Positions 2,090 through 9,397 of a DNA stretch of 12,417 nt are shown here, one piece after another. Numbering within the stretch: the stretch's first letter is position 1; every line of letters begins with the position of its first letter. Origin of the DNA: a virus. Its lineage: Duplodnaviria; Heunggongvirae; Uroviricota; Caudoviricetes. The DNA lies in IMG/VR virus record IMGVR_UViG_2617270966_000008; one strand, written 5' to 3'. The notes below the pieces were generated by a model. The model was not told where the DNA came from. It was given only the letters and a program-made list of their open reading frames with translations, and did no database searches. Both the position numbers and the translations under genes were made by a program.

Positions 2090-2119
2090 AGTATTTTTGA
2101 TTCTATTCCGGCACCGTCC
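2090..2119 (-). promoter_or_regulatory. candidate sigma70 promoter for the rem block (minus strand: TTGAAG, 18-nt spacer, TAGAAT)
   Basis: Hexamers read on the minus strand between the upstream terminator and the rem RBS. Pattern match only. Confidence 0.3.
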
Positions 2120-2137
2120 AGAACTTCAAACGCGTTG

Positions 2138-2167
2138 AAAATAAAAACAAAAACCCGCCGAAGCGGG
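2138..2167 (-). terminator. Rho-independent terminator downstream of hok (minus strand)
   Basis: Minus-strand RNA AACCCGC-UUCG-GCGGGUU followed by UUUUUGUUUUUAUUUU, about 70 nt after the hok stop. Confidence 0.65.
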
Positions 2168-2237
2168 TTAAGTGCGGGTGCGTTGAGGATGCCTGCCACA
2201 TCAGAGGTGGCGAGGGGTTTCTCCCTCGCCGGGTCTC

Positions 2238-2393
2238 TTACTCCTCAGGTTCGTAAGCTGTGAAGACAGCGACCTCCGTCTGGCCGGTTCGGATTCGTAC
2301 CTCGCAGAGGTCTTTCCTCGTTACCAGTGCCGTCACTATGACGGTTAAACAGATGACGATCAGGGCGATTAACATCGCCTTTTGCTGCTTCAT
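2238..2393 (-). CDS. hokD: Hok-family type I toxin (HokD/RelF-like), 51 aa
   Basis: MKQQKAMLIALIVICLTVIVTALVTRKDLCEVRIRTGQTEVAVFTAYEPEE: single TM segment then the LTRK-LCE-R-G-EV-A-YE Hok signature. ATG at 2391-2393 with AAGGAG RBS. The track's 70-aa ORF is an in-frame upstream extension from an ATG at 2448-2450. Confidence 0.85.
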   Translation of the reverse strand: MKQQKAMLIALIVICLTVIVTALVTRKDLCEVRIRTGQTEVAVFTAYEPEE

Positions 2394-2604
2394 AGCCTGC
2401 TTCTCCTTGCCTTCCGGCACGTAAGAGGCTAACCTACATGTGTCTAGCATGAAATTGGCCTCAGATTAATGTTAAGCGTCTTGCAGGACGCGTAATGTTA
2501 ACTGGGGCTTTTCTCTATCTGCCTTTGGTGTTCATGCCCGAGGCAGATAGCCTCAAGCACCCGCAGGCATTCTACTTAACTCCCGTTACCTCGCCAATAT
2601 GCAA

Positions 2605-2694
2605 TCAGTCAGAAAGGCGATCCATAAGAACAATGGCAAGAAAATAAATCGCCATTACAGCCGCAATAGCCAGCGCACATTTGAGAACCAGCAC
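2605..2694 (-). CDS. candidate small hydrophobic peptide, 29 aa (MLVLKCALAIAAVMAIYFLAIVLMDRLSD)
   Basis: Below the ORF-track size cut-off. GTG at 2692-2694 sits 5 nt after a perfect AGGAGG (2700-2705). Predicted single TM helix with a charged C-terminus. In-frame stop upstream at 2749-2751, no ATG alternative. Confidence 0.3.
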   Translation of the reverse strand: MLVLKCALAIAAVMAIYFLAIVLMDRLSD

Positions 2695-3052
2695 CACAAC
2701 CTCCTGTATTGGACGTACACCAGTCCTGATAAATATGAGGCTGTCTCGTCAGTGATTCAATGCAACTATTAGATATAGTTTCTCTGATTTTGTTCTGTGG
2801 AAATGAAAAACAGCAACCAGTCACCACCAGCACTTCTTTAAATATGCAAAGTCCGATAACAAGCTAACCTTCTAGTCCGCTTTTATTTAGCGAGAAGCGG
2901 ACATTTACTATTCATACCTGTTTAGCTCCACTCTCTTTTGAGTGTTCCGATTGTCCGTACATCATTGAGTGCTCATCCGGTGTGTTTGAGAGGTGCATTC
3001 CAGATCCGAATAGCACCTCGCTTACCATAAAAAACTCTTAATACTCTTTTTC

Positions 3053-5449
3053 CTAAGATAACCTTGGTGGTTCGCCAATGCTTTTTAACAAGGAATTGTA
3101 TTGATGCGGATCTGACGCATAAATCTTGTCTAACACGTAGTTGGCTACCTTGGAAATTTCTGGAATCTCCACAGGTTTGAATCCGCGATCAGGAATTGAT
3201 TCGAGATGTGAAAACTCGTTGTTAAGTCTATTCACAAGAGCTATCGCTGTTGAATCCTCTTCGCCAAAGAATTTCTTGATCCGTTCAAAGGCATCGTTCT
3301 TGTCATCATGGTGCGGGAACTTAAAGAACAGAAATGCCTCAAGGAACTTGCGGAGGTTGTTACCGAATCCATAGTATGGTTCATGAGATTCATTCGCTCC
3401 AACTTGATTACGGCACTTGTAAATCTGATGAAACAGGTAGTTGAATTCAGTGATGTAGTCTCGCAAATATGAAGGCATCAGGGAAATCTGACTTGTCCCT
3501 CCATTTCTCTCAACGATTAAATGTTGGCATCCACCATGATTCCTTTCATTAGGAAGTGATATTTTCTTCAGATATTTCAAGAAATCTAGGTTGTGGGTGG
3601 ATATAAAAAGCTGCTTATAGCGATAGCTGTTTGTTCCATCTAAATTCTTAATGGGTTTCGCAATCAGGCTTTCAATCAAGCTGAACATGAAGAAAATGTG
3701 ATTTCCGTCAAGACTGGAAATCGGGTCATCTATATAAATGATCAGATCCTTACCTTTGCTTTCAGGCTCTTCCAACTTGGCCATGAAGTAGCAGAAAGCA
3801 ATCAGGCTGCATTCTCCTTCGCTCAAGTTGTAGGCTGATTTGCCATCTCTGGTGACTTCAAACTTAACCGAAGTATTCTCAACATTGTCTTTTGCTTCAA
3901 GTTCGATGCCGTCATGACCAAAAAAGTGGCTGAGCAACTCATTGACTCGCTCCGCGCCCTTGCGTTCATCCTTCTGCTGCCCCTGTAAACGGGTCACTTC
4001 GGTTTCTTGTTCAAAAATTTCAGCTTCAGTTTCGGTAAAGGCAGTGTTGGCTGTGTTAGCATCTGACTTAAGACTGGCAATACGGGCGAATTCATTATCG
4101 TAGGTGATGTCTGCGATAAAAGACGCCACATCGGTAAGCCGGAGAGATTCTCGTGCAGTGCTTTTATCGTTCTCCAGCGAAATTGTGCGGTCATTATTTT
4201 TGACGATCAGAGCATTGATGTCGCCCACACATTGCTGAATTGCTGTCGGATTATGAATATAGACAGGCATGAGAACCTGCTGAAAAATAGCGTTCTTTCT
4301 CTTATCCAACGCCGCCTGCAGAGCTTTGAGGTCCTGCATGTAGTCTTTCAGATGTTCAGAAAGTTCTATCTTGCTGTTTTCAAATAATATTTTCTCTTCT
4401 GCGTAGAATTTATCGCCAGTCAAAGTCAAGAAGTTAGGAATGGCTTGGATTTCGGTGGTGATAGAAGTCAGACATGAATCGATACTTGACTCCAGAGCCG
4501 AGGATTCCTTACTGAAGTGAGAGCCTAATACCTGCCAGATATCATGAGGAAGATTCTGACGACAGAATGCGCAAGTGTCCCGCTTATCTTTGTGCAGCGG
4601 TATACCTTCCTTCACCCACATCTGGAGAGCCGTCTCATTCAACAACTCCTGAATTGGCAGGGTAGGCTCAATCAATCTTAAAAGGAGTTCTTCAGCTTCT
4701 TTGCTTATTGATTCGATGTTGAGGTTTATCGATACGGTATCGTTAATATCAGGCAAGGCCTCTTGCTTCAAGAGATTGACCTTGGCTGCTTGTTCTTCGG
4801 TTGTCAGAGCCCTGAAGCCAGGTTTTTTGACTAAACCAATGTCTTTTTTGATGCTTTCTATGTTGTAGACAGCAGGGCCGTAGATGCGATTCTGTTTAAT
4901 CTTATTGTTAGCATGAGAACGAAGTTTGCCCTCTAGAGCATCAGACGCAGTTTTATGATTGTCTTTGGTTCGATCTCGCTCTTTCTTTTTAGCTTCAAGC
5001 TCATGTCGGAGACCCGCCTTCGATTCAACACTGCCTAACCTAGTTTGAATTGCGGTAATGGCATCTTCGATTTCTTTATTCTTTTCACCAACGATAGCAA
5101 ACGTCTTGATCTCGCCGTCGGTCTGATTGACCAAGAAGTTTAGGTTATCGCTCACAAAATCCCGGTTGTAGACGCGAACATCGTAGCCATGACCAGCAAG
5201 ACCTACCTGTGTCACATCACCTTTGTCACCACGAATAGTAAAATTTGGGTCCACGTAGTTATGTGGAATGCGCCCCGTTTCCAAAGCGCGGAAAATTCGT
5301 GAGAGTGTAGTTTTACCAGAGTAGTTCCGTCCGTAGAGGATGTTAAGCCTCTTGAAATTCTGGACATTGTTACCTGCATCCTTAAGGCTATTTTTCCAAC
5401 TGAGGTCCGTAAAACTACCGAAACTACCGATGTCAACCTGACTAAACAT
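3053..5449 (-). CDS. Rad50/SMC-like ABC ATPase with internal coiled coil, CxxC zinc hook and C-terminal effector domain; RloC/PrrC-like (AAA_13-type) putative anticodon nuclease / anti-phage protein
   Basis: Residue numbers follow the 800-aa track ORF. Walker A GRNYSGKTT (42-50); long K/E/L-rich region with C295-x2-C298; C-terminal ABC signature-like LSEGE, Walker B LIIYIDDP, D-loop SSLD, H-loop ISTHN; then a roughly 170-aa domain with RKFLE...FPHH and RNHGGCQH motifs. Probable start is the ATG at 5447-5449 (GGAAG RBS), two codons inside the track's GTG. Gene looks AT-richer than its neighbours by eye. Confidence 0.8.
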   Translation of the reverse strand: MFSQVDIGSFGSFTDLSWKNSLKDAGNNVQNFKRLNILYGRNYSGKTTLSRIFRALETGRIPHNYVDPNFTIRGDKGDVTQVGLAGHGYDVRVYNRDFVSDNLNFLVNQTDGEIKTFAIVGEKNKEIEDAITAIQTRLGSVESKAGLRHELEAKKKERDRTKDNHKTASDALEGKLRSHANNKIKQNRIYGPAVYNIESIKKDIGLVKKPGFRALTTEEQAAKVNLLKQEALPDINDTVSINLNIESISKEAEELLLRLIEPTLPIQELLNETALQMWVKEGIPLHKDKRDTCAFCRQNLPHDIWQVLGSHFSKESSALESSIDSCLTSITTEIQAIPNFLTLTGDKFYAEEKILFENSKIELSEHLKDYMQDLKALQAALDKRKNAIFQQVLMPVYIHNPTAIQQCVGDINALIVKNNDRTISLENDKSTARESLRLTDVASFIADITYDNEFARIASLKSDANTANTAFTETEAEIFEQETEVTRLQGQQKDERKGAERVNELLSHFFGHDGIELEAKDNVENTSVKFEVTRDGKSAYNLSEGECSLIAFCYFMAKLEEPESKGKDLIIYIDDPISSLDGNHIFFMFSLIESLIAKPIKNLDGTNSYRYKQLFISTHNLDFLKYLKKISLPNERNHGGCQHLIVERNGGTSQISLMPSYLRDYITEFNYLFHQIYKCRNQVGANESHEPYYGFGNNLRKFLEAFLFFKFPHHDDKNDAFERIKKFFGEEDSTAIALVNRLNNEFSHLESIPDRGFKPVEIPEISKVANYVLDKIYASDPHQYNSLLKSIGEPPRLS

Positions 5450-5468
5450 GAACACTTCCGTCGCGCTG

Positions 5469-9344: not shown

Positions 9345-9397
9345 TTTCTGGTGACGTTTGGCGGTATCAGTTTTACTCCGTGACTGCTCTGCCGCCG
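9345..9397 (+). ncRNA. dicF: DicF small regulatory RNA (ftsZ-targeting, Hfq-dependent) with its terminator hairpin
   Basis: TTTCTGGTGACGTTTGGCGGTATCAGTTTTACTCCGTGACTGCTCTGCCGCC followed by GTTTTT matches DicF as recalled. GGCGG/CCGCC stem plus U-run. Ends are approximate. Confidence 0.85.

Follow-up and report, generated by a model that had tools for sequence, protein, structure and literature searches.

The DNA analysed here, a stretch of 12,417 nucleotides from a virus record (hereafter the window), carries a hok toxin gene on its minus strand, and it raises the question of whether this gene belongs to a complete and self-contained regulatory locus and, if so, how its mRNA is kept silent. 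An earlier note made from the sequence alone had favoured a self-contained locus and had proposed that the two ends of the mRNA fold back on each other over about 21 bp, naming RNA folding and a covariance-model search as suitable checks. Judging from the sequence and from structure prediction, the segment 2143-2597 (minus strand) is very probably an intact type I toxin-antitoxin module of the hok/mok/sok family, of the full-length hokD type of lambdoid (Qin/Rac/Stx-like) prophages. As a canonical example of a family that is very well known, the locus is itself already known and ordinary.

The covariance-model search returned a full-length match to RF01794 (the 'sok' model) at 2388-2562 on the hok strand, covering model positions 1-157 of 157 with 117.1 bits against a gathering score of 59. 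On the plus strand of the window the same model reaches 19 bits only, below threshold. When the model was run on K-12 hokC, hokB and hokE, it matched again on the hok strand, which is opposite to the strand of the sokC, sokB and sokE annotations, and for this reason RF01794 is a model of the hok mRNA leader, Sok complement included, that alone places no Sok gene. Weak Rfam E-value matches to isrK, rsmX, ceN48 and mir-879 all lie far below their gathering scores and were set aside as chance. The toxin gene itself (2238..2393, minus strand) appears in the ORF listing as a frame for 51 amino acids with a sequence identical to HokD, preceded by a Shine-Dalgarno sequence AAGGAG (2403..2408, minus strand) that is invariant across the alignment of related loci described below. 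The protein is 100% identical to the HokD-type proteins of loci L009-L018 among these; HokD-identical proteins occur in E. coli, Shigella, E. albertii and E. ruysiae, and RefSeq genomes annotate the toxin gene as hokD. The Tyr47 codon of hok (TAC) sits inside CUUACGAA (2250-2257, minus strand), and the TACG motif, at which A-to-I editing by TadA, with a change of Tyr to Cys, has been reported in K-12 hokD (PMC5630033), is kept here.

The hok frame is overlapped by a longer mok reading frame of 70 codons (2238..2450, minus strand, from the ORF list), which is in frame with hok and shares its stop codon. The in-frame upstream ATG that had been noticed at 2448-2450 is the start of this frame. Its 70-residue product contains the Hok/Gef domain (PF01848, 81.6 bits against a cutoff of 22 in Pfam) and is 72% identical to the annotated MokC of K-12, which is likewise in frame with hokC. 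A mok Shine-Dalgarno sequence, GAGG (2459..2462, minus strand), invariant in the alignment, stands 8 nt before the mok AUG. By analogy, translation of hok may be coupled to that of this overlapping upstream frame with its own Shine-Dalgarno sequence. The RF01794 match, the Hok/Gef domain and the Mok/MokC homology together support the assignment to the hok/mok/sok family, and the reading of a self-contained hok locus holds.

Conservation was assessed with 54 loci with HokD/HokC-clade proteins, taken from contigs of one genome per species, to which K-12 hokB and two plasmid loci were added. The leaders were located by nhmmer, and 41 distinct transcripts were aligned, spanning Escherichia, Shigella, Kluyvera, Pseudocitrobacter, Photorhabdus, Erwinia, Pantoea and plasmids. 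The covariation set is biased to the HokD/HokC clade, plus hokB and one plasmid locus.

How far the two ends of the mRNA can pair depends on where this RNA begins and ends. A consensus scan gives TTGGCG-17-TAGAAT as the sole good promoter match on the hok strand, with the -35 element TTGGCG at 2597-2592, a 17-nt spacer and the -10 element TAGAAT at 2574-2569 (promoter 2569..2597, minus strand). In 41/41 aligned loci a -10-like hexamer (TAGAAT, TATAAT, TACAAT, TATATT, TAGGAT and similar) is found exactly 6 nt before a conserved GGG, the beginning of the leader, and the 5' end of the hok mRNA most likely lies at about G2562, as read from these signals. At the other end, a terminator scan places an intrinsic terminator, AACCCGC-UUCG-GCGGGUU followed by a U run, at 2143..2169 (minus strand). 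The predicted full-length hok mRNA thus extends over 2143..2562 (minus strand), about 420 nt.

Reading of the sequence and an inverted-repeat scan recovered, upstream and downstream of hok, all four blocks on which the longer fold-back had been based, at the positions given for them. In the minus-strand RNA their order at the 5' side is GUUAAGU-aga-AUGCCUGC-GGGUGC-UUGAGG, and that at the 3' side is GCAGGCAU-CCUCAA-c-GCACCCGC-ACUUAAC. This places the ATGCCTGC/GCAGGCAT block in the wrong order with respect to the others, and pairing of GTTAAGT needs an 11-nt loop-out. Moreover, the hok promoter shares sequence with two of the blocks, its -10 hexamer (2574-2569) and its discriminator being overlapped by GTTAAGT (2580-2574) and ATGCCTGC (2570-2563). 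Because of this overlap, and because the position of the hexamer is kept in 41/41 loci, an RNA that starts at about G2562 would lack both blocks, which are most likely promoter DNA that is not transcribed. The whole complementarity of about 21 bp could still be functional if transcripts started further upstream, for instance as read-through of the ATPase gene or of the small ORF at 2605-2697, carried GUUAAGU and AUGCCUGC and so folded back more strongly. The blocks do exist and the upstream genes share the hok strand, but an RNA begun at 2580 gains 3 bp only in the predicted fold, with GUUAAGU unpaired in the minimum free energy (MFE) structure, and the order of the ATGCCTGC/GCAGGCAT block is wrong for a single helix. 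The loci in which the upstream side has changed show no compensation either: in one (L018) the upstream sequence has become TTTTTGT...ATCACGGC and the 3' segment has not changed, and in two others (L016 and L022) the upstream block is altered alone while the 3' segment stays the same. In addition, the 3' GGCAU (2193-2189) pairs instead with mok AUGCU in the full-length fold (helix 6; only 64% paired), and this modelled pairing may, tentatively, account for the conservation of GGCAU better than a match to the promoter does. Functional upstream-started transcripts are thus very improbable, and the colinear duplex of about 21 bp was rejected, two of its four blocks being in the promoter, one being out of order and neither co-varying. 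What stands of the proposed complementarity is a core of 12 bp with one bulged C; the figure of about 21 bp had been over-counted.

This core is formed by the translational activator element tac, GGGUGCUUGAGG (2551..2562, minus strand), and the fold-back inhibitory element fbi, CCUCAA(C)GCACCC (2176..2188, minus strand), which pair as 2562-2551 with 2188-2176. Folding of the predicted full-length mRNA gives an MFE of -174.1 kcal/mol (z = -7.3 against 100 shuffles) in which the tac-fbi helix closes the molecule, as the fold-back reading had anticipated. The 36-nt hairpin that had been reported at 2515-2550 in the leader is real and represents the top of the tac stem (2515..2550, minus strand); all predicted folds contain its 10-bp stem. 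The ucb or anti-SD element, AGCCCC (2504..2509, minus strand), is predicted to pair in the full-length fold as 2509-2504 with CUGAGGC in the mok Shine-Dalgarno region and so to sequester it.

Tac has two other partners, depending on the fold. The first 40 nt of the RNA alone fold as a hairpin of -19 kcal/mol in which tac is paired with 2544-2532, a metastable hairpin. When the 3' end is cut to 2200-2190, the prediction switches to a structure in which tac pairs with ucb and the mok Shine-Dalgarno sequence pairs with dcb (UAGCCUCUUAC, 2421..2431, minus strand), a near-invariant block. In this truncated fold the mok Shine-Dalgarno sequence is predicted to be sequestered by GCCUC within dcb, and a 7-nt loop, CUAGACA, follows the mok AUG. 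A three-conformation scheme has been described for the hok mRNA of plasmid R1 (PMC9841398; PMC3851714). The 3' UTR of the window contains an inverted repeat that forms the hairpin GGCGAGGG-AGAAAC-CCCUCGCC (2209..2230, minus strand; helix 19). On the analogy of the R1 model (PMC9841398), this hairpin is likely to protect the 3' end of the processed mRNA.

Twelve base pairs with a bulge make a short helix, and 5/2000 shuffles of the 3' UTR attain its -21.5 kcal/mol, so that the complementarity of the ends could in principle be a chance match in a GC-rich leader, without a role. A scan of the window speaks against this: of 514 segments of 95 nt from both strands of its 12.4 kb, the fbi segment ranks highest as a non-self complement for the 5' 13-mer, surpassed in binding solely by the exact antisense of tac. 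The related loci argue in the same direction. In almost all loci whose 3' end is intact, the best partner of the first 16 nt begins within a narrow stretch, 43-50 nt past the stop codon, and fbi occupies the interval 43-63 nt beyond that codon in almost all of the related loci. Across the 41 loci, tac-fbi is 90.2% paired in fixed columns; displacing the 3' side by 1-3 columns lowers this to 33-56%. The pair at position 4 of the helix is U:A in 30 loci and C:G in 9, with one U:G intermediate, the C:G loci being mainly those of Photorhabdus, plus Pantoea and one of the four Erwinia loci. Finally, the pairing matches an element that is experimentally established in the R1 hok mRNA (PMC9841398). 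A coincidental match is for these reasons barely credible, and the tac/fbi fold-back is retained: it is closed in the predicted full-length structure, and the 41 loci supply one compensatory pair. The helix has no other well-populated compensatory pair, and in fixed columns its distal half reaches only 60-75% pairing, the bulge being placed differently between clades. The conservation of the proposed complementarity among hok loci therefore holds for the tac-fbi core and does not extend to the GTTAAGT and ATGCCTGC blocks.

The remainder of the predicted structure is conserved as well. Across the 41 loci the whole full-length structure reaches 84.9% pairing (37-43% in the slid controls), and both partners have changed in 53 of its pairs; the projected structure was derived from the window sequence and is favoured over the slid controls for that reason, which leaves the compensatory changes unaffected. 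The upper tac stem (helix 2) is 91% paired with 3 compensatory pairs, and the helix between ucb and the mok Shine-Dalgarno sequence (helix 5) is 89.8% paired with 6. For the truncated form, the 5' helices are 84% paired against 35-51% when slid, single helices ranging over 73-98% with compensatory changes; the tac-ucb helix 1 is 97.9% paired, and the pairs between the mok Shine-Dalgarno sequence and dcb (columns 112-117 with 148-152) are invariant. The 3' UTR hairpin (helix 19) is 96.6% paired, and 5/8 of its pairs have changed on both sides.

Some copies deviate from this pattern. A hokD-type copy in E. coli ECMA0423 (L011, CP178302.1 1947510-1949262) has tac mutated to GACTGCATGTGG and a damaged ucb, with fbi and the hok ORF intact, and its regulatory region is apparently decaying. 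The hok ORFs of three other loci (L053, L060 and L062) are broken. Identical or near-identical hokD of the E. coli type is also found on short contigs or metagenome-assembled (MAG) scaffolds whose record titles read Veillonella, Acinetobacter, Xanthomonas and Candidatus Scatousia (L018, L028, L034 and L061), most likely a consequence of contamination or mis-binning rather than of transfer.

A Sok-like antisense RNA had been expected on the plus strand by the earlier note, which considered that its promoter and terminator could not be placed with confidence. A generic promoter and terminator scan of the plus strand found none for Sok. Homology to sokB and sokC, together with folding, nonetheless allows a predicted placement. 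Projected through alignment A3, the 5' ends annotated for K-12 sokC and sokB fall on window positions 2442 and 2443 and their 3' ends on 2518, and transfer of these ends gives a predicted Sok RNA of about 77 nt (2442..2518, plus strand). TAACCT lies 7 nt upstream of 2442 and TTGCCT 17 nt further up, and from sequence reading they would constitute the Sok promoter (2407..2435, plus strand), with the -35 element TTGCCT at 2407-2412, a 17-nt spacer and the -10 element TAACCT at 2430-2435. The -10 element matches 3/6 consensus positions and is too weak for the generic scan. Hexamers of the form TTGCCN or TTGACC ... TAnnnT are present at the same columns in 41/41 loci, K-12 hokB included, and the complement of dcb also supplies the spacer and the -10 edge of this promoter.

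In the predicted Sok RNA a single-stranded 5' tail, whose sequence is complementary to that of the mok start codon and of the target loop, leads into a hairpin of 21 bp (2459-2507), and the RNA ends in a CUUUUCUCU tail. Predicted folding energies are -30.5 kcal/mol for the Sok strand and -19.9 for the sense strand. The Sok strand is the more stable of the two in 41/41 loci (means of -24.9 and -14.4 kcal/mol), because the G:U pairs of Sok become C:A mismatches in the sense strand. The Sok/leader hairpin of the hokD clade carries an extension of about 18 nt (2475-2492, plus strand; alignment A3 columns 82-99) that is absent from the hokC, hokB, Photorhabdus and Erwinia loci, where Sok measures 57-59 nt instead of 77. 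Kluyvera copies have compensatory changes inside this extension.

These elements can be assembled into a scheme that is modelled on the plasmid R1 paradigm; the sequence and structure steps are those given above, and the remainder we infer. Transcription from the sigma-70 promoter (2597-2569) would start a minus-strand mRNA of about 420 nt at about 2562, and in the nascent RNA tac would be held in the metastable hairpin with the sequence immediately downstream. Once the 3' end is made, tac (2562-2551) would pair with fbi (2188-2176) and ucb (2509-2504) would sequester the mok Shine-Dalgarno sequence (2462-2459), so that the full-length RNA would neither be translated nor bind Sok. Slow trimming of the 3' end to the hairpin at 2230-2209 would remove fbi and let tac re-pair with ucb. 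The mok Shine-Dalgarno sequence would then lie in the dcb hairpin, the apical loop of which, CUAGACA (with a YUNR-like CUAG), would present the mok start codon. The 5' tail of the plus-strand Sok RNA (about 2442-2518) would bind this loop, blocking the translation of mok and the coupled translation of hok, and the duplex would be cleaved. If Sok were lost, Mok and Hok would be translated and Hok would damage the inner membrane.

Whether this scheme operates in the present locus is less certain than that its parts are there. With all elements intact in sequence, the locus may nonetheless be a functionally silent passenger of a cryptic prophage, Hok never being released and processing, Sok turnover or promoter strengths being out of balance. 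The window belongs to the Qin-like elements of the DicF, rem, ydfU type, decayed copies occur elsewhere (the tac of L011 and the hok ORFs of L053, L060 and L062), and the same conclusion has been reached for other chromosomal hok loci, for which a preprint reports that those tested by others show no post-segregational killing (bioRxiv 10.1101/2025.08.07.668861). On the other hand, every element is intact in the window, and the locus recurs at an identity of at least 95% in thousands of genomes and in records of plaque-forming or inducible phages. The RNA structure has undergone compensatory changes across genera, which implies selection on the regulation. A silent passenger is thus possible, and we regard it as the less probable state of an intact module.

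The surroundings of the locus are those of a Qin-like prophage segment, with rem at 1770-2021, a DUF968 ydfU-like gene at 374-1423, and genes for DUF977, YdaT-like and CI-like repressor proteins. A DicF small RNA (9346-9397, plus strand; RF00039, 72.5 bits, full length) marks the Qin-type dicBF region. The absence of relBE upstream of hok, as the earlier note had it, was confirmed: tblastn of RelB and RelE against the whole window gave noise only (E = 1.5), none is encoded in the window, and homology to the K-12 locus begins only at 2407. The form without relBE is no oddity and is in fact the commoner state, at least 80% of window 2100-2650 being covered in 3140/5426 complete E. coli genomes, against 1173 with the relE-hokD junction of the K-12 type. 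The locus is also found in 74 phage records at 80-99% identity, or 89-99% over its whole 461 nt, under labels such as MokW protein, HokD toxin, host killer protein and mok/hok.

Directly upstream of hok, where K-12 Qin has flxA-ydfV-relBE, the window carries a gene for an AAA_13 ATPase of 800 aa (3053-5455, minus strand; PF13166, 509 bits), which matches the PADLOC candidate defence family PDC-S06 (1067 bits). Only 15/5426 E. coli genomes have the ATPase-hok junction, and an IS3 splits the ATPase gene in L001, the closest genome. Just upstream of the hok promoter lies an unannotated ORF for a hydrophobic peptide of 29-30 aa, (M)VLVLKCALAIAAVMAIYFLAIVLMDRLSD (2605-2697, minus strand), with AGGAGG 5 nt before a GTG at 2694. 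Three other loci (L001, L016 and L061) retain it, as do the phages mEp460_ev081, Evi and Tritos, in which it carries no annotation, and it has no Pfam, NCBIfam or PADLOC match. The slot upstream of hok holds relBE in K-12 and the AAA_13 ATPase (PDC-S06) here. It may be a cargo site of Qin-like prophages, at which hok/sok and the small ORF serve an anti-phage or abortive-infection island and not maintenance. We regard this as unlikely; a recent survey finds no general enrichment of hok beside defence systems.

Among known systems, the experimentally defined paradigm is hok/mok/sok (parB) of plasmid R1, and the order of elements in the window is the same: promoter, tac, ucb, Sok target, mok Shine-Dalgarno sequence, mok, dcb, hok Shine-Dalgarno sequence, hok, 3' hairpin, fbi and terminator. 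The 5' end of the R1 mRNA, which we take to be GGCGCUUGAGG, is resembled by GGGUGCUUGAGG of the window. In R1 mok is out of frame with hok, whereas in the window it is in frame. The predicted Sok of the window, of about 77 nt with a hairpin extension of about 18 nt, also differs from that of R1, the Hok protein (HokD/HokC clade) is only distantly similar, and the setting is a prophage and not a plasmid. The three predicted conformations, metastable, full-length closed and truncated open, are those of R1 (PMC9841398). The same paper names nucleotides 4-6 of the R1 hok mRNA as G, C and T (PMC9841398).

The closest annotated full system is hokC/mokC/sokC (gef) of K-12. Its Hok is 82% and its Mok 72% identical to those of the window, mok is in frame in both, the RF01794 scores are alike (118 there, 117 here) and the ends of Sok map colinearly. 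The two differ in that IS186, just downstream of K-12 hokC, removes its fbi, whereas the fbi of the window is intact, and in that SokC has 59 nt, without the hairpin extension; the chromosomal site is also different. The lambdoid and Stx phage loci (MokW protein, HokD toxin, mok/hok of phage Rac, gef 'phage maintenance protein') present nothing materially different from the window. They share with it the downstream neighbour rem, and the upstream cargo varies between phages. The discovery value of the locus is accordingly small: annotations of the module (hokD, mok/hok) already exist for E. coli genomes in the thousands and for phages by the dozen, and existing Rfam and Pfam models capture it.

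The comparison with K-12 hokD (relF, in the relBEF operon of Qin) is of a different kind. The Hok protein is identical, and from 2407, 14 nt ahead of the hok ATG, the two DNAs agree at 99% identity up to and including ydfU, a stretch that takes in the 3' UTR, fbi, the terminator and rem. The relBEF operon arrangement itself was rejected for the hok gene of the window on the tblastn result and the start of homology at 2407. In K-12, relB-relE replaces everything upstream of the hok Shine-Dalgarno sequence, and for this reason the K-12 locus (L002) has no tac, ucb, mok start, Sok or Rfam match and keeps an orphan fbi. RefSeq records list the hokD coding sequence alone, and the mRNA ends, tac, ucb, dcb, fbi, mok and the predicted 77-nt Sok can now be annotated alongside it. 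The window carries all the regulatory parts, with Sok as a predicted one, which makes it a better template than K-12 for the study of the hokD clade.
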